NCBI GenBank assembly: GCA_040758575.1
Contig: JBFLVH010000008.1
Coordinates: 35,624-99,623, forward strand
Reading direction: 5' to 3'
Source: Bacteroidota bacterium
GTDB taxonomy: Bacteria > Bacteroidota > Bacteroidia > B-17B0 > Aurantibacillaceae
Length of the DNA: 64,000 nucleotides
Part shown: positions 2,029 through 13,495 of the stretch, one piece after another
Position numbering within the stretch: position 1 is the stretch's first letter
Layout: the number at the start of each line of letters is the position of its first letter
Notes under the pieces: generated by a model
The model's database searches: none
What the model was told of the DNA's origin: nothing
Seen by the model: only the letters and a program-made list of their open reading frames with translations
Program-made: the position numbers and the translations under genes

Positions 2029-2925
2029 ATGTCCATCAGTGTAAAAAATGTTACTAAAATTTATGGTAAGCAAAAAGCCCTGGATAATGTTTCATTTGAA
2101 ATAAAAAATGGAGAAATTGTAGGTTTTTTAGGACCTAATGGTGCGGGCAAAAGCACTATGATGAAAATTATTACAGGATACATTCCCCCAAGTAGTGGAA
2201 TGGTAGAAGTAAATGGTTTAAACATATTTGAACATTCTCTTGAAATAAAAAAACAAATCGGTTATTTACCTGAACAAAATCCTTTGTATTACGAAATGTA
2301 TGTAAAAGAATTTTTAGAGTTTATTGCTAAATTATATGGCATAAAAAGTGTTCATCAGAGAGTGAAAGAAATGATTGATATATGCGGTTTGGAAATTGAA
2401 CAACACAAAAAAATAGGTACACTTTCAAAAGGTTATAAGCAAAGAGTAGGTTTAGCGCAGGCACTTATCCATAACCCATCTGTACTAATATTAGATGAAC
2501 CCACATCTGGTTTAGACCCCAATCAATTAGAAGAAATCCGACAATTAATTAAAACACTTGGAAAGGATAAAACAGTAATGTTAAGCACTCATATTATGCA
2601 GGAAGTAGAAGCCGTGTGTAATAAAGTCATTATTATACATCGTGGTAAAATTGTGGCTTCTGATGATATTCAAAATATTAGAAAATCGGCGGGTACAAAA
2701 AAAATTATTGTTGAATTCTCCATAGCATTGAACAAACAACATTTTGCGGAATTATCGCTTCAAAGCATTGAAAAAATTTCTGATACACAATGGGCTATTG
2801 AAACAACTGATGAAGATATACCTAAAAAATTGATGAACATTGCCATTAAAAATAATTGCAGTATTGTTAGTTTGAATAAGTCAGAAATGAAATTAGAAGA
2901 AGTATTTAAATCTTTAACTCAATGA
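2029..2925 (+). CDS. gldA: Gliding-motility ABC transporter ATP-binding protein GldA
   Basis: Walker A GPNGAGKST, signature LSKGYKQR, Walker B LILDEPTSGLD. The N-terminus MSISVKNVTKIYGKQKAL resembles Flavobacterium GldA as I recall it. gldF-gldG lie downstream on the same strand. Confidence 0.8.
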   Translation: MSISVKNVTKIYGKQKALDNVSFEIKNGEIVGFLGPNGAGKSTMMKIITGYIPPSSGMVEVNGLNIFEHSLEIKKQIGYLPEQNPLYYEMYVKEFLEFIAKLYGIKSVHQRVKEMIDICGLEIEQHKKIGTLSKGYKQRVGLAQALIHNPSVLILDEPTSGLDPNQLEEIRQLIKTLGKDKTVMLSTHIMQEVEAVCNKVIIIHRGKIVASDDIQNIRKSAGTKKIIVEFSIALNKQHFAELSLQSIEKISDTQWAIETTDEDIPKKLMNIAIKNNCSIVSLNKSEMKLEEVFKSLTQ

Positions 2926-3140: not shown

Positions 3141-4001
3141 ATGTTCCTATTGTTTTCTCTTTGTCTATCATTTGCTCAAAATAAAATGGATTCACTTGGA
3201 AGAAAACAAGGATACTGGAAAGTATATTATCCTAATTCCAAACACCTTGAATATGAAGGGTTTTTTAAAGATGATAAACCGCAAGGATTGTTCAAGTATT
3301 ATTATGAACACGATACTATTAAAGCCAAAGTTAATTTTATCAAAGAGGGTAAATATGCTTATGCTACCCTCTATCATATGAATGGAAAAATAATGGCAAA
3401 GGGTAAATATCTGGAACAAAAAAAAGATTCTGTGTGGGAATTTTACAATCAATTAGGACAATTACTCAACAGAGAAAATTATCTGCAAGGTCAAAGACAT
3501 GGATTAAGTATTACTTATTATGACTCAGGAAAAGTATATCAAAAAACACAATATATCTTAAATAAAAAACACGGGTATTTTATTGAATACTTCCCTGATG
3601 GAAAAATAAAAGGAATGGGCTATTACAAAAACGATTTGGCAGAAGGATATTTTGTTTATTATGCGCCTAACGGCACACGAGTTGGACTTATAACTTATCA
3701 AAATGGCGTGAGAAACGGACCTACTGTAATTAAAGATTTAGATGGAAAAATAACTGAAAAAACGCTTTACAAAAACGGTTATCCGGTTAAAAATGAAAAA
3801 GAATCAGAAATGTTTTTTCAACAACATCCTGAAATGCTTCATAATGAATTCGGTCTTGAAAAAGATATAATTAAACTTTTTGAAAACAGAAATGAAAAAT
3901 CATTTTTTATGGATAACATTACTACTGAAAACAAAAATGAACTTCTAAAAAATTTACAGCAAAAAAAATCTAATAATCCTAAACAAAAGATTAAAAAATA
4001 G
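3141..4001 (+). CDS. MORN-variant repeat protein (YwqK-like), secreted
   Basis: Repeated G(Y/L)xKxYYxNGxxxxEGxF-type units (GYWKVYYPNSKHLEYEGFF, GLFKYYYEHDT, HGLSITYYDSGKV, HGYFIEYFPDGKI, EGYFVYYAPNG). ATG at 3141 gives the signal-like MFLLFSLCLSFAQ. The ORF-track start at 2922 runs through the two hairpins. Confidence 0.7.
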   Translation: MFLLFSLCLSFAQNKMDSLGRKQGYWKVYYPNSKHLEYEGFFKDDKPQGLFKYYYEHDTIKAKVNFIKEGKYAYATLYHMNGKIMAKGKYLEQKKDSVWEFYNQLGQLLNRENYLQGQRHGLSITYYDSGKVYQKTQYILNKKHGYFIEYFPDGKIKGMGYYKNDLAEGYFVYYAPNGTRVGLITYQNGVRNGPTVIKDLDGKITEKTLYKNGYPVKNEKESEMFFQQHPEMLHNEFGLEKDIIKLFENRNEKSFFMDNITTENKNELLKNLQQKKSNNPKQKIKK

Positions 4002-4004
4002 ATT

Positions 4005-4028
4005 TAAATGATTCTATAAAATCATTTA
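4005..4028. terminator. AT-rich 9-bp hairpin between convergent genes
   Basis: TAAATGATT-ctataa-AATCATTTA, between the MORN gene stop (4001) and the peptidase stop (4071). Confidence 0.45.
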
Positions 4029-4070
4029 GAAATTTATTAAGATATTTTAAAAGGAAGTTTTTTACTTTAA

Positions 4071-5207
4071 TTAAAATTTACCAAGCTCATCATTTATTAG
4101 TTTAAACATTTCTGTTTCAGTTATTTTGAACTCATAATATATTTGCTTTAAACAACTATCTGCATTATCTTTAAAATCTTTTAATCTCAAAAGTCCTTTA
4201 ATACCAAATTTTTTGTATATTACATTTACTATTAATGCTGAAGACACATAAGCATCAGTAGAATTTGGTTTTTCATTAATTGTTTTGAATAAATTTTTAT
4301 TAAATGGATAGTATTTACTTTTAAATACTTTAAGTAAGTTAGAATAAGATTGATTTAAACTTCCTCCAAAAAATGTTGCTATACCTTCACTTAAAAAATG
4401 CCCTGTTTTTATTTTATTATCAACAACAAGATGCACTAATTCATGTGGATAATAAAATATTCCTTTTCCGGAAATTATCATTTTAGCGTCATAAAATGTC
4501 TTTCCAGTAGTATATCCTGCGTAAAAAAAATTAAATCCTAATAAATACCCTAAACTCTCTGGACTTTTACAAACCACAAAATTCACAGAATCTATTTTTG
4601 CTGAAAAAATATAAATCATACTATCAAGAAAATTTTTTGCTTTTTCCATTTCTAATTCATTTGGGTTTAAAGATGGTTCAATAATGTATTTTATTTTGTC
4701 ATAATTATATTTTTTCCAATTTGCTATTCTTTCTTCAAAAAGATTAAAAAGATACAAATTATTGTTTTGTTTTAAAATTCCAATTTCAACAATTGCAAAT
4801 GGGTTGGAGTTTAAAGATGCATTAGTGTCATTTGGCGTAAAATTAAAATGACAAAATGAGGTAGTTATATAGCAAGTATCACCTTGAGAACTAATAGAAA
4901 GAATATATGGTTTAAAATAATTTAGTAAAGATTTTTGGGGATACTGAAATAGAGATGAATAAAACAATGAGTAGTCATTCCCAAATTGTTTTATTTGAGA
5001 TGGTAGCCAATATTTTTTTCTAATAGAATCATTTTCTTCATACAAAAAATTTATCCAAAAATTCAAATACTCTTTACATGAAGATTGATTTAATGAAATA
5101 CTTGCTAAAGAATGTAAATAAAATTTAGGGGATGAGTTCTCTTTTTCTTGTGAAAAAACAAAACTTAAATAAAAACAAAATAAAATAGAAAATAATATAT
5201 GTTTCAT
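4071..5207 (-). CDS. Secreted HExxH metallopeptidase (peptidase MA-like), last gene of the lanthipeptide operon
   Basis: Signal peptide MKHILFSILFCFYLSFVFSQ. HELVH followed 15 residues later by SEGIATFFGG (gluzincin-like HExxH...E, resembling Peptidase_MA_2). Its start overlaps the lanM stop as ATGA (5204-5207). Confidence 0.6.
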   Translation of the reverse strand: MKHILFSILFCFYLSFVFSQEKENSSPKFYLHSLASISLNQSSCKEYLNFWINFLYEENDSIRKKYWLPSQIKQFGNDYSLFYSSLFQYPQKSLLNYFKPYILSISSQGDTCYITTSFCHFNFTPNDTNASLNSNPFAIVEIGILKQNNNLYLFNLFEERIANWKKYNYDKIKYIIEPSLNPNELEMEKAKNFLDSMIYIFSAKIDSVNFVVCKSPESLGYLLGFNFFYAGYTTGKTFYDAKMIISGKGIFYYPHELVHLVVDNKIKTGHFLSEGIATFFGGSLNQSYSNLLKVFKSKYYPFNKNLFKTINEKPNSTDAYVSSALIVNVIYKKFGIKGLLRLKDFKDNADSCLKQIYYEFKITETEMFKLINDELGKF

Positions 5208-8089
5208 AAAGATTTGTAATCTCTTGGTTTATTTGATGTAGGAGGATGGAGCAGTAAAATAGAGGGCATATTATAATCAAATAATAATTTTAATATATTA
5301 TATGCAATACCAGAATTACCCAAAAACAAACCATTCAATGAAAACTTTCCATTTTTAAATCCAGTTTTCCAATTTAATTCACCAGTAGTATCCTTTTTAT
5401 AAATTTCAAACACAATTTTATTTTTTGTTAAAGTTATTAAATTGTGATTTTTAGTTTTATATCCAATCGCCATTAACGTTTCTAAATTTCCTAACATTCC
5501 ATGACATAAACAATGTGAATGTTCGAATCCTTCTTTAAGAATAGTCCCTTTTATTTTATTCCAGTTAATATCAAAGTTAATAGGCAGAAGATTTTCAATT
5601 TCTAAATAAGCATTTAATATACCAGATGAACCATGGCACCAAGAAGGGGATGTTATTAAAAAATCAGAATATCGTAAATCTCTCCAACCTTGATAACTCT
5701 CAAAAAAATAATTGTTATTATATTTTATAATACTATTTAAAAACATAATATCTTTTTTTGTGTAACCAAATAATTCATAATATTTTGATAGAGCATATAA
5801 AATACCTGCATTACCATGTGCAAAACCAACTAAATATTTAAATTTATTGCATTCCCATGTTATGCCATTGGATGTAATAATTGCTGATTTTAGTATTTTT
5901 TGATATATTTTTTGAATAGGTAGTATTAAAGAATTTAGTTTTTCATTTTTATAGTAGTCAATAAGTAAAATCAATAAACCAGAACATCCATTTAATACAT
6001 CTATAAATGTATCAAATCTTATGTTATTTTTAACATATGGAACTAATTTCTGTTCAAATAATTCATTTAAATTTGTATTTTCAATATCGCCAATTATTTT
6101 ACTATAATGCCAATAAAAATAAAGGGTTGAAAATGGAAAATGGTAAGGTGAAAAAAGATAATATGATTTTGAGGGATTAAAATTTTTAAAAGTAAAAAGA
6201 GATTTATTCATAATAGATTGTGCGACCCTTTTGTATTTTGATTCTTTTGTAAATTTATATAAGTATAAATAAAACAATCCCAATCCATCTAATCCGTCGT
6301 AAATTCCAAAATTTTTCGGAGCAAACTCCCATTGACCAACTCTTCCTACATTAATATCTATCCATTGATATGATTTACCTACACGTATCCTATCATTTAG
6401 TACCTTTTCTGCTATTTGAATAATGTGTTTTTTTATTTTTTTCGTATCATAATTATAAGGTAATGAATTATTGTTTAAACTTTTCTTTTCAAGAATCTTA
6501 TTGTCTTTACTTTGTTCAAATTGATAAAAACACGAAATAGATTTTTCAATATATGAAATTTGATCTTTAATTACAGTATCAGATAATTTGTTTATTCTAT
6601 TAACCATCGAATGAAACCCAGACTTTTTTAAAATATAATACCTGTTGTTTTTATCAAAAATAAATTTTTTAAATGGTTTTGTATAAAATATAGGATAATC
6701 TAAATTTTGTAATTCTTTTATTTCAGATTCAATTAATTCCTTTGGGAAACAATCTTTATCATATGAACTATACAAATAATTCAAAATTTTTATTCTTTTA
6801 GAATAACTTTTTAAATTATCTGGATGTAAACTCTCTTTAAGAATTATATTATAGACATTTGTATGTCTCATTAACACTCTAGTACTAATATTATATTGAT
6901 TAATTAAGCTTTTAACAATGGAAATTAACCACTTTTTATTAATCATAATGAATCTACAACAACTATCAAAACCGTCGCAAATTTTCGAGCACATAACATC
7001 TATGGCTATCTTTTTATCAGATTTACTTGGAATGTGATAAGAATATTTAGGAAAGCTTTGAATTAAGTATTCTATCTTTTTGTTTCTACTAAAAAATAAT
7101 TTTGTGTGTGAAGAATGAATTGCTTCAAGGGATATACCACCAAAATTTAATCCTACATTATCTATTTTATTTGGTGTCCAAAAAGGAAGAAGTCCAGTGC
7201 CAATAACAGATTCTTTATAGTAATTTTCAATTAAAGGATAAGTATCGTTAATTGATGATTTTATTATGGGTTTAAATAAACATTCAGTGTCAATAAAAAC
7301 AGGTATTGTTTTCTTTACAATTATATTATCAGCAATTATATCAGATATTCCTAAAGAATAAAATAGAGCAAGGTATTTTCCAATATTCTCGTAATATAAC
7401 TTAACCCCCTTCTTTGAATTATTAGGTACATAATTAACAAACTCTTCCCAATAATAATTACATTTTATTAGCCTCTTTGGAAATATAAAAGGCAAATTAT
7501 AACCTTTTTCATTAATTTTTCTTATAATACATTCAAAAACTAAACTACTTTCATAAGGTTTTACTTTATATGCAATTTTTGAACCAGATTGAAATATTAT
7601 CACTGTATGTGTTTGACCATTGTTGTGAAAATCACCAATTGGCCATTGAATGGAGATGGGCACACTATCTATACCAAAATAATTCTGGATATCTTTTTTA
7701 TCATTTAAAAATCTGTCAATAAGATCAGAAAAATATTTGACATAATTTTGAATTGAAATATCAAGAATTCTTTTGAGTTGAGGATATTTACTAAAACAAG
7801 AATAAAATAATTCTTTTTTTCTAATAAACAAAATATTCTTGCGACCATCTTTATAAGTATCACTTAAGCTATTATATGTGTAAAGTATGGGAAATTTAAT
7901 TAATTCAAAAATTTGTATTGATATTGCTTCTGAAATAGAATTTATAAACAAAATGAGATTTTCATTATAGTTAATACTTTTTTGAAGTAATATAAATACA
8001 CTATTTTTAATTTCATTAAAATCATTATGACTAATTTCTTCATCAAATTCCTTTCTTAAATATTCATCACTTGAAAAATAAAATTTCAT
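5204..8089 (-). CDS. lanM: Class II lanthipeptide synthetase (LanM): N-terminal kinase-like dehydratase plus C-terminal LanC-like cyclase
   Basis: 961 aa. Motifs: GDFHNNGQTHTVIIFQSGSKIAYKVKP, DIIADN...FIDTE, SVIGTGLLP, RVLMRHTNVY. Cyclase motifs: YDGLDGLGLF, GFAHGNAG (H758), SWCHG (C818), CLCHG (C862/H863). Confidence 0.9.
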   Translation of the reverse strand: MKFYFSSDEYLRKEFDEEISHNDFNEIKNSVFILLQKSINYNENLILFINSISEAISIQIFELIKFPILYTYNSLSDTYKDGRKNILFIRKKELFYSCFSKYPQLKRILDISIQNYVKYFSDLIDRFLNDKKDIQNYFGIDSVPISIQWPIGDFHNNGQTHTVIIFQSGSKIAYKVKPYESSLVFECIIRKINEKGYNLPFIFPKRLIKCNYYWEEFVNYVPNNSKKGVKLYYENIGKYLALFYSLGISDIIADNIIVKKTIPVFIDTECLFKPIIKSSINDTYPLIENYYKESVIGTGLLPFWTPNKIDNVGLNFGGISLEAIHSSHTKLFFSRNKKIEYLIQSFPKYSYHIPSKSDKKIAIDVMCSKICDGFDSCCRFIMINKKWLISIVKSLINQYNISTRVLMRHTNVYNIILKESLHPDNLKSYSKRIKILNYLYSSYDKDCFPKELIESEIKELQNLDYPIFYTKPFKKFIFDKNNRYYILKKSGFHSMVNRINKLSDTVIKDQISYIEKSISCFYQFEQSKDNKILEKKSLNNNSLPYNYDTKKIKKHIIQIAEKVLNDRIRVGKSYQWIDINVGRVGQWEFAPKNFGIYDGLDGLGLFYLYLYKFTKESKYKRVAQSIMNKSLFTFKNFNPSKSYYLFSPYHFPFSTLYFYWHYSKIIGDIENTNLNELFEQKLVPYVKNNIRFDTFIDVLNGCSGLLILLIDYYKNEKLNSLILPIQKIYQKILKSAIITSNGITWECNKFKYLVGFAHGNAGILYALSKYYELFGYTKKDIMFLNSIIKYNNNYFFESYQGWRDLRYSDFLITSPSWCHGSSGILNAYLEIENLLPINFDINWNKIKGTILKEGFEHSHCLCHGMLGNLETLMAIGYKTKNHNLITLTKNKIVFEIYKKDTTGELNWKTGFKNGKFSLNGLFLGNSGIAYNILKLLFDYNMPSILLLHPPTSNKPRDYKSL

Positions 8090-8146
8090 CTCGCACTAAC
8101 TTCATTCATACAACCAGAAAATCCGGTCTAATTATTATCAAATTTA

Positions 8147-8386
8147 CTATTCTAAACCTATTGCAAACTCATATCTATCTACAACAAGTTTGAAACCAGA
8201 TGGAGATTCAGAAATATCAGCCTTTTTTATTTGAACTTTAGGTACATCACTAAAACAACAATGTACAACCGTGCCATCACACCCGCTTCCACTACCAGTT
8301 CCAGATGACCCTAATGCTCCATTGTATCTTTCAACTAGGAATTCTAACTCCTCTTTTCTCATTTTAATTACTTCAGTTAAAGCCAT
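8147..8386 (-). CDS. lanA: Putative lanthipeptide precursor (LanA) with a central Cys/Ser/Thr core and a C-terminal leader-like extension
   Basis: 79-aa ORF 57 nt upstream of lanM on the same strand. Core is SSGTGSGSGCDGTVVHCCFS (3 Cys, 7 Ser/Thr). Leader motif FLVERYNGALG is echoed near the C-terminus as LVVDRYEFAIG. Confidence 0.7.
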   Translation of the reverse strand: MALTEVIKMRKEELEFLVERYNGALGSSGTGSGSGCDGTVVHCCFSDVPKVQIKKADISESPSGFKLVVDRYEFAIGLE

Positions 8387-8661
8387 AAATTTAATTTTTG
8401 ATGTTATTATTGGCTGTAAAAATAAGTAAAAAGATATTTATTTACAAATAAAAAATCACTTTTTTCCTAAATATTTTTAAATAGTTTTTTAAGTTGCTGT
8501 ATTTCAGTAATTTAAATTTTTAAAATTATTTATAATTTAAAGTATTAAAAATATACCTCCTCCTCTTTTTTGTTCTTTTTAAACCTCATATTCCTATTTC
8601 TAAACTTACCTATCCTTTAATATCATTAATGTTACTATTTAGCTTATAATTAAACCTCAAT

Positions 8662-8738
8662 GACGCAAAGATTTTTATGACAAGAATTGCACGAATTATT
8701 TTTCAATTTTTAGTATTCATTTTTCACATCTTTGCGCC
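8662..8738. repeat. Inverted repeat GACGCAAAGAT ... ATCTTTGCGCC (10 of 11 matched) with 55-nt spacer
   Basis: Arms at 8662-8672 and 8728-8738. A third CGCAAAG copy lies at 8829-8835. Located in the 585-nt non-coding gap. Confidence 0.4.
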
Positions 8739-8860
8739 TTAGCATTAAAAAATTTAATAGTGATGAATAGTAACTTATTAATTAAATTTTTCAATTCCAC
8801 TTAAATACTAATTTTACACTATATTCGCCGCAAAGTATAATAGTAAGTTTTTAGTTTTTA

Positions 8861-8925
8861 ATGCTGACGCTAGCGGTCAGCATGCTGATATTTTGCGTAG
8901 CAAAATCGTCAGCATTTTGATTTTA
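8861..8925 (+). terminator. Two adjacent GC-rich hairpins, the second followed by a T-run, 47 nt upstream of gldF
   Basis: Hairpin A: ATGCTGAC-gctagcg-GTCAGCAT (8861-8883). Hairpin B: ATGCTGA-t-ATTTTGC-gta-GCAAAAT-cg-TCAGCAT (8882-8915), then TTTTGATTTT. The U-tract exists only on the + strand. Confidence 0.5.
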
Positions 8926-8971
8926 GAATTTGAAATGAAAAAAACTAAACACTGAAAAAACTCAACACTAA

Positions 8972-9712
8972 ATGAAAGCATTATTTATCAAAGAAATACG
9001 AAGTTACTTAAATTCTCTGACAGGGTTTTTAGTGATACTTGTATTTTTAATTGTAACTGGTTTATTCTTGTGGATAATACCTAATGAAGCAACGGGCACT
9101 AACATTCTTGAAAATGGTTTTGCATCATTAGAAAGTTTGTTTTCCCTGGCTCCTTGGGTGTTTTTAATTTTAATTCCTGCGATTAGTATGAAATTATTTG
9201 CAGAAGAAAACAAAGCGGGCACATTAGAACTTTTACTCACTAAGCCATTAACCGAAATGCAAATTGTTTTATCTAAATACTTTGCAGGTTTTGTAATCAT
9301 CGTATTTTCACTACTACCAACCTTAATTTATTACTACACTGTTTATCAACTTGGCTTGCCAAAAGGTAATTTAGACACAGGCGGCACCTGGGGTTCATAT
9401 ATTGGGCTTTTCTTTTTAGCATCTGTATTTTTGTCTATTGGATTGTTTACTTCTGTTATCACAGATAATCAAGTGATTGCATTTATTTTTGGACTTATTA
9501 TGTGTTATTTATTTTACAATGGATTTGAATATCTGGCTACTTTCTTTTCTAATGGCTCTGTTGCACTTTTTATTTCTTCATTAGGAATTAACTATCATTA
9601 TTATAGTATGAGTAGAGGTGTTATTGATTCAAGAGATGTGCTCTATTTTTTAACTGTCATAACAATTTTTCTATTGCTCACCAGGTTAATTTTACAAAGT
9701 AGAAAATGGTAA
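8972..9712 (+). CDS. gldF: Gliding-motility ABC transporter permease GldF
   Basis: 246-aa ABC-2 type multi-TM protein. N-terminus MKALFIKEIRSYLNSLTGFLVILVFL is GldF-like. Overlaps gldG by 7 nt. Confidence 0.8.
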   Translation: MKALFIKEIRSYLNSLTGFLVILVFLIVTGLFLWIIPNEATGTNILENGFASLESLFSLAPWVFLILIPAISMKLFAEENKAGTLELLLTKPLTEMQIVLSKYFAGFVIIVFSLLPTLIYYYTVYQLGLPKGNLDTGGTWGSYIGLFFLASVFLSIGLFTSVITDNQVIAFIFGLIMCYLFYNGFEYLATFFSNGSVALFISSLGINYHYYSMSRGVIDSRDVLYFLTVITIFLLLTRLILQSRKW

Positions 9713-11409
9713 ATCAAATGCAAAACATTAAATATTCATCAAAGAAAAAAGATATAGGAAATTTTATCGCTTCCGTTATTGCCTTATTAATTATTAATTT
9801 TATTTTGAGTTTTTATTTTTTTAGATGGGACTTGACTGCTGAAAAAAGATATACTCTTTCTCCTTTCACAAAAGAATTTTTGAAAAATATTGATGATATT
9901 GTTTATTTTAAAATTTATTTAAGTGGCGACTTACCACCTGAATTTAATAAATTAAAAAAAGAAGTAAAAGAAATGCTGGATGAAATGCGAATCATTAACG
10001 ATAACATTCAGTATGAATTTGTTGATATTAATAGCGTTGGAAATAAAGAAGATATTAGAAATCTTGAAAAACAATTGTATGATAAAGGCATTGTGCCCGA
10101 ACAGGTAATAGAAAAAAAACAAAATAAAACATCAGAAAGTTTAGTTTGGCCTGGCGCACTTGTGTCTTACAAAGGAAAAGAAACTGTATGGCAAATTTTT
10201 TCAAGACAACTTGGTTATACTCCACAAGAAAACATTAATCACGCACTAAACGAAATTGAATATGGCATATGCAAAAGTATTCACAAACTCAAAAGAAAAA
10301 AGCGTCCTGAAATATCCATAGTTGAAGGGCACAAAGAATTAGACACTCTTCGTTTATATGACCTTATTCGTACTTTGTCAGAAGAATACAATATATCAAG
10401 AATCAATATCAATCATAAATTATATGCACTAAAGAATTTAGACGCTATCATTATTGCAAAACCTGATACACTCATTGATGAAAAAGATAAATTCATCATT
10501 GACCAATTTATAATGAAAGGTGGTAAAGTGCTATGGATGTTAGACCCTGTAAAAATTAATATGGATTCCTTTCGCCTGAAGGGATATTCTCTAGCGCTGA
10601 ACAATGAAACCAATTTAGAAGATATGCTATTTAGATATGGAGTACGACTAAACCCCGATTTAATCCAGGATTTACAATGTGCTGCAATACCTGTAAATAT
10701 TGGCTTTTCCAAAGGACAACCCAATTTTAAATTATTCCCCTGGATATTCTATCCTTTGATTATGCCTACTTCCAATCATCCTATTGTCAAAAATATGGAT
10801 TTGATTAAAACCGAATTCGTTAGCACCATAGATACATTAAGCACATCAGGTATTAAAAAAACCATATTGCTTACATCTTCTAAAAACTCAAGAGTAGCCC
10901 CAGTGCCATTCAGGGTATCGCTGGCTATCACGCAGTTCAAATTAAAAGAAAGTGCATTCAATCAAGGACCTAAACCAATTGCAGTTTTGTTAGAAGGAAC
11001 ATTTAAATCTTTATACGCCAACCGAATACCAACTATAATTATGGAAGACAGCACCATTCAGTTCAAAGAAGTTAGCGTTCCTAACAAAATGATTGTTATT
11101 TCAGATGGAGATATTGCCAAAAACGACATCAACAGAAGCACTGGTGTAATATATCCATTAGGTTACGACAAATATACTAATCAAACTTTTGCTAACAAAC
11201 AATTTATAGTTAATTGCATCAATTATCTATTAGATGAAACAGGACTGATGCAACTTCGTTCCCGTGAAGTAAAATTAAGATTATTAGACCAAAAGAAAAT
11301 AGCACTTCAAAAAACTAAATGGCAAATTTACAATGTGCTCTTACCACCTGTGATAATTAGTATTCTGGTTATTTTACAATATTATTGGAGAAAAAGAAAA
11401 TATACTTGA
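9706..11409 (+). CDS. gldG: Gliding-motility ABC transporter accessory protein GldG
   Basis: 567 aa with N- and C-terminal TM helices and the RWDLTAEKRYTLSP motif typical of GldG. Coupled to gldF. Confidence 0.8.
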   Translation: MVNQMQNIKYSSKKKDIGNFIASVIALLIINFILSFYFFRWDLTAEKRYTLSPFTKEFLKNIDDIVYFKIYLSGDLPPEFNKLKKEVKEMLDEMRIINDNIQYEFVDINSVGNKEDIRNLEKQLYDKGIVPEQVIEKKQNKTSESLVWPGALVSYKGKETVWQIFSRQLGYTPQENINHALNEIEYGICKSIHKLKRKKRPEISIVEGHKELDTLRLYDLIRTLSEEYNISRININHKLYALKNLDAIIIAKPDTLIDEKDKFIIDQFIMKGGKVLWMLDPVKINMDSFRLKGYSLALNNETNLEDMLFRYGVRLNPDLIQDLQCAAIPVNIGFSKGQPNFKLFPWIFYPLIMPTSNHPIVKNMDLIKTEFVSTIDTLSTSGIKKTILLTSSKNSRVAPVPFRVSLAITQFKLKESAFNQGPKPIAVLLEGTFKSLYANRIPTIIMEDSTIQFKEVSVPNKMIVISDGDIAKNDINRSTGVIYPLGYDKYTNQTFANKQFIVNCINYLLDETGLMQLRSREVKLRLLDQKKIALQKTKWQIYNVLLPPVIISILVILQYYWRKRKYT

Positions 11410-12266: not shown

Positions 12267-13495
12267 ACTTCAAACCCAAAATAATTAACGACCCTGTTTA
12301 TGGTTTTGTGAGTATAAATCATCCAATCATTTTAGAAATCATCAATCATCCGTATTTTCAGAGATTGAGAAGAATTAAACAGTTGGGGCTAACTAATCTT
12401 GTTTATCCTGGTGCATTACATACCCGATTTCATCACGCAATAGGCGCCATGCATTTAATGCAACAGGCCATTCAAACACTTAAAACAAAAGGTATTCGCA
12501 TCAATGATAAAGAAGAACAAGCATCTTTAATAGCCATATTACTTCACGACATTGGACACGGACCATTTTCACATGCCCTTGAAAATACTATTGTTTCAAA
12601 TGTTTCGCACGAAGATATTTCTTCAATACTAATGCACGATTTGAATAAACAAATGAATGGCAAGTTATCTCTGGCAATAAAAATTTTTGAAGACACTTAT
12701 GAAAGAAAATTTTTTCATCAATTAGTAAGCAGTCAGTTGGATACAGATAGATTGGATTATTTATTGAGAGATAGCTTCTTTACAGGTGTAAGTGAAGGTG
12801 TTATTGGAACAGATAGAATTATTAAAATGCTTACAGTTGTCAATGATAAATTAGTAGTAGAACAAAAAGGCATTTATAGTATTGAAAAATTTTTGATTGC
12901 AAGAAGATTAATGTATTGGCAGGTATATTTGCACAAAACAGTATTATCTGCAGAAAACATGCTGGTTAAAATTCTTACACGAGCAAAAGAGTTGGTAAGA
13001 AAATATAATTACGATTTGTTTGCTACACCTGCATTAAAATTTTTTCTACAAAATAATATTGAAAAAGATAGATTTTACAAAGATAAGATGGTCATTGAAA
13101 ATTTTATCAATTTAGATGATAATGATATTATTGCATCTATCAAAGTGTGGACAAAGTGTGATGATTTTATTTTATCTGAATTGAGCAAAAAATTTATCTA
13201 CAGACAATTATTTAAAACAATATTACAAAAAGACGAAATACCACAAAAAGTGATAACATCAATAGAAAAAAGAGTATTAAAGAAATACCATCATATTTCA
13301 ACACAAGAAATAAATTATTTTGTAATCAATGGTAGTGTGAATAATTCTGCTTATGTAAAAAACAAATTTAAAATTGAAATATTTGATGGTAAAAAATTAA
13401 TTGACATAGCCCGTGCAAGTGATAATTTAAATATAGAAGCATTAAGTGGCGAAGTGAAAAAATATTTTTTAAGTTATGATAGAAATATTGAATGA
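12263..13495 (+). CDS. HD-domain phosphohydrolase (COG1078 / SAMHD1-like family)
   Basis: RFHHAIGAMHL, LLHDIGHGPFSH and DTDRLDYLLRDS. ATGA overlap with the upstream gene. Confidence 0.8.
   Translation: MNFKPKIINDPVYGFVSINHPIILEIINHPYFQRLRRIKQLGLTNLVYPGALHTRFHHAIGAMHLMQQAIQTLKTKGIRINDKEEQASLIAILLHDIGHGPFSHALENTIVSNVSHEDISSILMHDLNKQMNGKLSLAIKIFEDTYERKFFHQLVSSQLDTDRLDYLLRDSFFTGVSEGVIGTDRIIKMLTVVNDKLVVEQKGIYSIEKFLIARRLMYWQVYLHKTVLSAENMLVKILTRAKELVRKYNYDLFATPALKFFLQNNIEKDRFYKDKMVIENFINLDDNDIIASIKVWTKCDDFILSELSKKFIYRQLFKTILQKDEIPQKVITSIEKRVLKKYHHISTQEINYFVINGSVNNSAYVKNKFKIEIFDGKKLIDIARASDNLNIEALSGEVKKYFLSYDRNIE

Follow-up and report, generated by a model that had tools for sequence, protein, structure and literature searches.

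A class II lanthipeptide precursor family with its conserved core between the leader and a conserved C-terminal tail

Lanthipeptide biosynthesis is understood as the leader-guided modification of a C-terminal core, and both mining tools and engineering platforms assume that layout. In class II systems such as LctA/LctM, LicA2/LicM2, CylL/CylM and ProcA/ProcM, a small precursor gene lies directly upstream of the gene for a bifunctional synthetase, LanM. The precursors combine an acidic/hydrophobic [DE]L-x-F-[LI] leader helix with a Ser/Thr/Cys-rich segment, and a Gly-Gly, Gly-Ala or Gly-Ser site together with an ATP-binding cassette (ABC) exporter carrying a C39 peptidase is typical of the class, though not universal. 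Here, we describe a locus in a 64,000-nucleotide stretch (the window) of contig JBFLVH010000008.1 from a Bacteroidota bacterium. Its lanA gene, which encodes the precursor of a class II lanthipeptide family spread over at least two phyla, resembles the canonical systems in gene arrangement, leader type and possession of a Ser/Thr/Cys-rich segment. It differs from them in that the core is not C-terminal, being followed by ca. 33 conserved residues, and in the lack of both a Gly-Gly/Gly-Ala site and a C39-peptidase ABC transporter (a scan of ten window genes between 246 and 13495 detected neither a C39 nor an ABC-exporter domain). We consider it probable that lanA specifies a tripartite precursor of the leader-core-extension type, whose core lies between the leader and a conserved tail and is processed by a dedicated metallopeptidase. 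The elements of the locus are as follows:

8147-8386, minus strand: lanA, precursor of 79 amino acids, ATG to stop (stop codon at 8147-8149), from the open reading frame (ORF) list and translation
8309-8386, minus strand: leader, residues 1-26, MALTEVIKMRKEELEFLVERYNGALG, from family alignments
8249-8308, minus strand: core, residues 27-46, SSGTGSGSGCDGTVVHCCFS, from a 20-sequence alignment
8150-8248, minus strand: C-terminal extension (tail), residues 47-79, from the tail alignment
5204-8089, minus strand: lanM, class II lanthipeptide synthetase of 961 amino acids with dehydratase and LanC-like cyclase domains
4071-5207, minus strand: HExxH...E zinc metallopeptidase of 378 amino acids, overlapping the lanM stop by 4 nt

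The lanA translation (MALTEVIKMRKEELEFLVERYNGALGSSGTGSGSGCDGTVVHCCFSDVPKVQIKKADISESPSGFKLVVDRYEFAIGLE) is identical to the peptide of the original prediction, which was made from these letters without database searches and left the strand, minus, unstated. All three predicted cysteines (C36, C43 and C44) are present, as are the seven Ser/Thr residues of the segment 27-46 (S27, S28, T30, S32, S34, T39 and S46), and residues 47-79 are free of Cys, as had been reported. The peptide therefore carries both the Ser/Thr donors and the Cys acceptors of a class II lanthipeptide. M1 is the conserved start: residues 1-8 are kept among relatives, and the upstream ORF extensions of the relatives are not. 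No second copy of the peptide is encoded within the 64-kb window. Family alignments define a leader motif, M-x(3-4)-[DE]L-x-F-[LI], and a leader end, G-x-[LM]-G; the window leader has no Gly-Gly site and ends in ...NGALG|SS, with Leu at -2. The bipartite layout of a leader plus a C-terminal core does not hold for lanA, since 33 conserved residues come after the last Cys-containing segment. This extension consists of a strand, V51-x-I53, a variable linker (56-60), SPSG and a hairpin, F65-x-L67-x-V69 / turn / x-I76-x-L78. Searches of the window peptide against Pfam (E<=0.01) and NCBIfam (E<=1) returned no families and no curated precursor model, and a PDB sequence search with the family profile returned no relative.

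The lanM gene begins 58 nt downstream of lanA on the same strand. Its product matches the Pfam domains DUF4135 (1e-70) and LANC_like (1.6e-46) and scores 529.7 bits, against a cut-off of 304, with the NCBIfam model for type 2 lanthipeptide synthetases (TIGR03897). It aligns over its full length with LicM2 (6st5, 2e-62) and CylM (5dzt, 6e-38), the GDxHxNGQ, WCHG and CHG motifs being aligned. The adjacent synthetase and the layout of residues thus bear out the proposal of a LanM-associated precursor with modifiable residues in its center.

Relatives of the peptide were collected in three ways: 5.8 billion proteins were searched through a word index, 1.84 billion representatives were searched exhaustively with a profile, and genome and metagenome contigs were scanned with patterns. 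When species-representative genomes were scanned, the LanM query gave no hits because its patterns were too specific; scanning with the peptide alignment succeeded. About 30 distinct relatives were recovered. Nine are database homologues (60-100% identity), and some 20 others are more distant; none is named, and none has a Pfam domain. All contain the sequence GSSGTGSG-x(1-10)-CDxTxVHCC. In the 20-sequence alignment, G29, C36, D37, V41, H42 and C43 are invariant and S27, T30, S32, G33, T39 and C44 are at least 90% conserved; conservation in the family is therefore highest in the core and not in the leader. A LanM is encoded beside every relative with enough flanking sequence except one, L015 (the LanM-adjoining loci are L002-L006, L008, L011, L012, L018-L020, L022 and L026-L028). 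These members span Bacteroidota, one Alphaproteobacteria metagenome-assembled genome (MAG) and unassigned metagenome contigs.

The invariant residues C36, D37, H42 and C43 are classical metal ligands, and one may ask whether the peptide is a small protein that binds metal and has no more than a genetic linkage to LanM. Twin-arginine translocation (Tat) signals on some relatives point in the same direction, Tat being the export route of folded, cofactor-loaded proteins. We nevertheless regard this explanation as very unlikely: more than 10 independent loci from different phyla have the peptide strictly adjacent to LanM, a metal site would have no use for the nearly invariant Ser/Thr-Gly run, and the structural model described below contains no ordered site.

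The family falls into two architectures. Tail-bearing peptides (21 sequences) come from Bacteroidota MAGs, the Alphaproteobacteria MAG (L006) and other metagenome contigs, and all are without Gly-Gly. Tailless peptides (about 10 sequences) have the Bacteroidetes Gly-Gly leader, ...ELxF[LIV]TGG, retain the same GSSGTGSG...CDxTxVHCC core and stop 3-15 residues past HCC, except P0037, which has a longer Gly/Asn-rich tail. Several of them (P0034, P0037, P0039 and P0044-49) give weak, sub-threshold matches to TIGR04149. Tailless relatives thus share their leader type with the Bacteroidetes precursors of the TIGR04149 type, whereas the window peptide and the other tail-bearing members have lost Gly-Gly and gained a tail, and do not match TIGR04149.

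Within the tail-bearing group, which extends from Bacteroidota to Proteobacteria, the tail keeps the pattern V-x-[VI] / [FY]-x-L-x-V / turn / x-I-[EDG]-[IVAL], with alternating hydrophobic positions, and L67 and I76 are invariant in 16 diverse tails. Ratios of nonsynonymous to synonymous differences per site (pN/pS) were computed from the codons of the window gene and five relatives. The ratios, which are rough because synonymous sites are near saturation, are as follows:

Leader, residues 1-26: 0.23
Core, residues 27-46: 0.25
Linker, residues 47-60: 0.66
Tail, residues 61-79: 0.25

As can be seen, purifying selection on the tail equals that on the leader and the core, and it is clear that the reported frame of the tail is translated and under selection. 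This disposes of the doubt, raised in the original prediction, that a frameshift had produced it. The tail is a real element, conserved in 21 relatives across phyla, and not read-through. Homologues ending right after the Cys-rich segment, which had been named as the observation that would speak against the tail, are confined to the subgroup with Gly-Gly leaders; all close relatives continue beyond that segment. The window peptide accordingly has a conserved, follower-type C-terminal sequence past its modifiable residues, which is assumed to be unmodified, there being no Cys in it.

The structure of the peptide was predicted with AlphaFold2 (AF2) from a 20-sequence family alignment (mean predicted local distance difference test score (pLDDT) 67.8, predicted template modeling score 0.51). 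In the model, residues 1-24 comprise a strand (5-9) followed by a helix (11-20) with pLDDT of ca. 80, and residues 47-79 form three strands (51-55, 65-69 and 72-78) with pLDDT of 83-85. Between them, the Ser/Thr/Cys core (residues 25-46) has pLDDT below 50 and is therefore predicted to be disordered. When the model was compared with the PDB by Foldseek, no match had an E value below 1.5. Given the shallow alignment, the prediction carries moderate weight; it leads us to infer that leader and tail may pack as one small unit that presents the core as a loop.

The original prediction had rested the importance of the tail on a resemblance to the leader. In the window peptide, the resemblance is literally present: FLVERYNGALG (16-26) and LVVDRYEFAIG (67-77), the latter lying inside the C-terminal extension, share five identities (V, R, Y, A and G) and four conservative pairs, and the two 33-nt DNA segments are identical at 19 of 33 positions, in agreement with the claim that the copies have diverged. 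VIKMRK (6-11) and VQIKK (51-55) do precede the two segments, yet at unequal distances of 4 and 11 residues, respectively. Aligned with itself without gaps, the window peptide reaches at best (EFLVERYNGALG/KLVVDRYEFAIG) a BLOSUM62 score of 29, equalled by 0.7% of shuffles; for the 71-amino-acid database form of the same peptide, the score is equalled by 1.3% of shuffles.

Across the family, the resemblance disappears. The best self-scores of the other 10 sequences tested are 15-20, at or below the shuffle mean, and are equalled by 46-99% of shuffles. Profile-profile comparison of 16 leaders with 16 tails by hhalign returned a probability of 0.08% and no aligned segment. Close homologues have FLVERHNGALG in the leader and LVAGDCEFAIG in the tail, with only A, G and an L/I pair common to both. 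R70 and Y71 are found only in the window lineage, and V69 occurs otherwise only in P0009. Of the nine close homologues from the database, one is the window's own protein, and in the other eight Cys occupies the place of Y71 (GDCEFAIGLE); the consensus tail is LVAGDCEFAIGLE. The predicted structures differ as well, a helix (11-20) for the leader segment and a beta-hairpin (65-78) for the tail segment. We conclude that the description of two copies of a leader-like motif does not hold for the family, and that the repeat is a coincidence or convergence specific to the window lineage, where it arose by AGDC to VDRY substitutions and is without family-wide meaning. This correction matters: because it is absent from relatives, the eye-catching duplicated leader is unfit as a basis for the design of experiments and should not guide them.

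Two of the mechanisms proposed for the peptide depended on that resemblance. The first, in its literal form, has two homologous leader-like motifs read by one LanM site and clamping the core from both sides. The low fraction of shuffles reaching the window score speaks for it, but the similarity is absent from the other sequences tested, the profile comparison is null, a helix faces a hairpin and R70 and Y71 are lineage-specific; we hold it to be highly improbable. What survives is the general idea of a core held from both sides, with which the ordered ends and disordered core of the model are compatible in spirit, though not through a homologous pair of motifs. The second mechanism, fusion of two tandem lanA genes of which the second lost its core, can draw on the window-specific similarity and on the fact that tandem lanA genes are common in class II clusters. 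With no family-level leader/tail similarity and different predicted secondary structures, such a fusion is left without a homology signal. Moreover, the tripartite layout already exists in the Alphaproteobacteria MAG and in distant relatives with quite different tails, and two separate genes were found in none of the loci examined. It is the least probable of the explanations considered here.

The third gene of the cluster bears on how the peptide may be processed. The N-terminus of its product is hydrophobic and signal-like, and its motif is HELVH; H255, E256, H259 and E274 are invariant among 15 homologues. An AF2 model (pLDDT 88.5) places helices at 254-266 and 270-281. Foldseek matched the model first to the peptidase domain of clostridial collagenase (M9; E 1e-5, probability 1.0) and then to M1 aminopeptidases; the M9 and M1 matches have probabilities of 0.98-1.0, and the M9 matches have TM-scores of ~0.37-0.42. 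No Pfam family was matched at E<=0.01, and the only NCBIfam match was a sub-threshold one to the flagellinolysin HExxH model (E 0.05, 13 bits versus a cut-off of 205). From the invariant HExxH...E residues and the M9/M1 structural matches it follows that the enzyme is an unclassified zinc peptidase of the gluzincin type, and we consider it a candidate processing protease.

The gene order lanA-lanM-peptidase is found in the window, L002, L004, L006, L018/L019 and L028, the identity of the peptidases to that of the window ranging from 63% down to 27%. For P0003/P0011, P0041/P0018 and P0002/P0022, contigs of equal size and neighboring locus tags point to this order as well. Of the nine tail-bearing loci that extend far enough, six have the trio; it is missing from both tailless LanM loci (L026/L027), where LanM is followed by a 193-amino-acid protein of unknown function instead of the peptidase. 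Tail, absence of Gly-Gly and gluzincin go together consistently, if in small numbers. In L018, a locus of a Bacteroidota relative, the HExxH peptidase gene is directly followed by one for a 979-amino-acid M16 (insulinase-type) peptidase (L018:10716-13655), which could be a second processing enzyme; the window has no such gene.

A single conserved peptidase in the cluster would also fit the third mechanism of the original prediction, in which one protease makes twin cuts after ALG26 and AIG77 and releases residues 27-77. Both sites hold within the Bacteroidota clade, G-A-L-G and A-I-G-L being invariant in 10 Bacteroidota sequences. However, proteobacterial and other relatives that have the peptidase (L006, L028) show DIEIV, EIEVE, PIDAV or PIEAV, without Gly, at the second site, while the first stays G-x-[LM]-G; in addition, a cut at 77 would free two residues only. 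We therefore judge twin cleavage unlikely. Taken together, the tail does matter, as had been proposed, but neither the duplicated leader given as the reason nor two of the three mechanisms put forward survives comparison with relatives.

We return to the leader-core-extension precursor processed by the metallopeptidase. If it acts like the leaders of other class II precursors, the [DE]L-x-F-[LI] helix would dock the peptide on LanM, which would then dehydrate Ser/Thr residues within positions 27-39 of the core, SSGTGSG-x-CDGTxVHCC. Judging from the enzyme and the pattern of conservation, addition of C36, C43 and C44 could yield up to three thioether rings. The ~33-residue tail, kept as a beta-strand pattern, and the N-terminal strand may hold the core as a loop, act as a recognition element, or both. 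After export, the gluzincin, itself apparently exported, would most likely remove the leader near G-A-L-G|S and possibly the tail too.

Several observations weigh against this scheme. Tailless relatives stand beside LanM, which shows that LanM action does not require a tail in every case. The peptidase gene is absent beside LanM in the tail-bearing loci L003, L020 and L022 (L003 being a second cluster in the MAG whose L002 has the trio), and no LanM lies near the two peptidase homologues that are most distant (27-28% identity). The structural model of the peptide was built on just 20 sequences with a mean pLDDT of 67.8 and matches no known fold. Finally, the window cluster has no exporter gene and the window peptide no signal sequence, yet the peptidase that it would have to reach looks exported.

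A further set of relatives bears on the fate of the tail. In P0028, P0029, P0030, P0031 and P0042 (loci L008, L010, L011 and L022), the peptide has an N-terminal extension with a twin-arginine motif (RRAF, RRQF or RRDI), and in four of these five a lipobox-like Cys (LAGC, SAGC, LVGC or TVGC) comes next, ahead of a normal MRMTK..LEF leader. These assignments were made by motif inspection, and the NCBIfam TAT models matched below threshold only. One such gene has the following position:

L022:767-1111: lanA of P0042, directly upstream of a full-length LanM gene (L022:1125-4106)

The fragments flanking this pair (L022:1-624 and L022:4266-4466) both start with RRELQNSWISYRGERH, and the upstream one, of 207 amino acids, looks transposase/integrase-like by eye, which suggests that the Tat-type lanA-lanM pair lies between insertion-sequence copies. 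In the part of the literature covered, no natural Tat-signal or Tat-lipoprotein lanthipeptide precursor was found. The sole Tat link found there is an engineered phage-display system (PMC5686179).

Cleavage of a Tat signal would leave the leader attached to the exported chain, and it is possible, though doubtful, that the tail too belongs to the mature product, which would then be a 53-amino-acid lanthipeptide or a whole lanthionine-stapled small protein of 70-80 amino acids with leader and tail as scaffold. The tail is as constrained as the core and structure is predicted at both ends of the peptide; in many relatives, the tail contains a Cys with Ser/Thr nearby (GDC, TPTC, STC) that could give a further crosslink. 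This Cys, on the other hand, is absent from the window peptide and at least 7 other tail-bearing members, a dedicated and co-inherited peptidase suggests cleavage, and tailless relatives keep the same core, from which it follows that the core alone appears to carry the conserved function. A specific extra ring from S61/S63 to Cys71 was considered and set aside, as Cys71 is missing in the window and many tail-bearing relatives, and the model puts position 71 in the hairpin turn, at the far end from S63.

More tentatively still, leader and tail may be the halves of one folded scaffold (strand-helix ... three strands) that shows the core to LanM as a surface loop. The substrate, and perhaps the product, would in that case be a mini-protein with a lanthionine-stapled loop; relatives with Tat signals and lipoboxes would export it folded by Tat and anchor it by a lipid in the envelope, and the gluzincin would retain or release it.

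Removal of a tail has parallels outside lanthipeptides. In cyanobactin precursors (PatE), recognition sequences flank the core, and amatoxin precursors have C-terminal recognition/follower sequences. The bottromycin follower is removed by a zinc amidohydrolase (PMC10885120). The window system resembles those of BotA, PatE and the amatoxin precursors in combining a conserved, presumably unmodified C-terminal sequence with a dedicated cluster hydrolase, and differs from them in its chemistry (LanM), in the lack of any sequence relation and in having both a leader and a tail. Metallopeptidases also take part in lanthipeptide maturation, with M1 AplP-like, M16 and M61 enzymes in classes III/IV and the M61 enzyme MfuP in a class II Myxococcus cluster (PMC10885120). 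Like AplP and MfuP, the window enzyme is a zinc gluzincin encoded with a lanthipeptide precursor; unlike them, it belongs to no Pfam or NCBIfam sequence family, has its best structural matches among M9 enzymes, is small (378 amino acids) and has a signal-like N-terminus.

In the part of the literature covered, searches on class II followers, Tat-signal lanthipeptide precursors and Bacteroidota class II clusters yielded no description of the family, and no conserved follower was found to be reported for any class II precursor; searches for the core motif strings returned unrelated abbreviations only. The family is thus provisionally regarded as undescribed.

Genes around the cluster are on the opposite strand or set apart from it and are not kept beside it in relatives. 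Besides a MORN-repeat protein gene and an M3 peptidase gene, they include ABC genes of the ABC_tran ATPase and ABC-2/ABC_transp_aux types:

8972-11409, plus strand: gene for an ABC-2 membrane protein and ABC_transp_aux/DUF7088 gene
2029-2925, plus strand: ABC ATPase gene, on the other side of the cluster

These look like housekeeping genes (GldF/GldG/GldA-like) rather than a lanthipeptide exporter. A σ70 promoter scan of positions 3900-9000 found fewer promoter-like sites than in shuffles, with a tool that omits Bacteroidota promoters, and a terminator scan of the same region found none between lanA and lanM. Since Bacteroidota promoters are outside the coverage of the tool, we make no claim about transcription signals. 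Scans of the window for Rfam families and tRNA genes returned nothing.

Some clusters of relatives have additional genes. In L006 (8434-8985) and L020 (1390-1857), a conserved ORF of 155-183 amino acids without a Pfam domain is inserted between lanA and lanM; the two products are 30% identical (E 4.5e-22), and the G+C content at third codon positions is highest in the called frame. Both clusters are high-GC and non-Bacteroidota, and the window cluster has no such ORF. In L002, the peptidase gene is followed by a gene for a TauD/TfdA-family dioxygenase (12395-13105), which is kept neither in the window nor in the other loci examined. Asp hydroxylation by enzymes of the TauD/TfdA type is known for cinnamycin, and the family core has an invariant Asp. 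The locus with no LanM within ca. 3.5 kb, L015, encodes a tailless member of the Gly-Gly type (L015:5316-5462; ...VHCCFKDIVITCH), followed by the gene for a 394-amino-acid protein with an HQCAH motif and no Pfam match (L015:6033-7217). P0047, a near-identical peptide, is recorded with an equally long contig (8971 bp).

Three retrieved sequences were excluded from the family. L007 (8001-8093) is by eye part of a YebC/TACO1-like protein from a Polyangiaceae MAG, a false positive of the scan with the peptide alignment that carries FERHNGALGSSGT, a 13-residue near-match to the leader-core junction, which we treat as chance. P0036 (repetitive, 599 amino acids) and P0038 (a repeat protein of 881 amino acids) came from the profile search and are not members. 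P0038 has ca. 10 tandem 60-residue repeats with ...GQNDTS[VL]HCRFP.F.KVNV... that weakly match the family's CDxTxVHCCF-x-[DV]-V-x-V (E 7e-5), probably a convergent beta-strand sequence.

The family departs from the accepted layout of lanthipeptide precursors in three ways: its core lies between the leader and a structured-looking tail, the Gly-Gly site and C39 peptidase are replaced by an unclassified zinc peptidase, and some members are fused to Tat-lipoprotein signals. If the tail aids presentation or processing of the core, this would explain why current predictors miss such precursors and would provide a new handle for placing lanthionine-stapled loops within larger polypeptides. The unusually conserved core, with its Asp, His, three Cys and four Ser/Thr, points to one conserved target or ligand.

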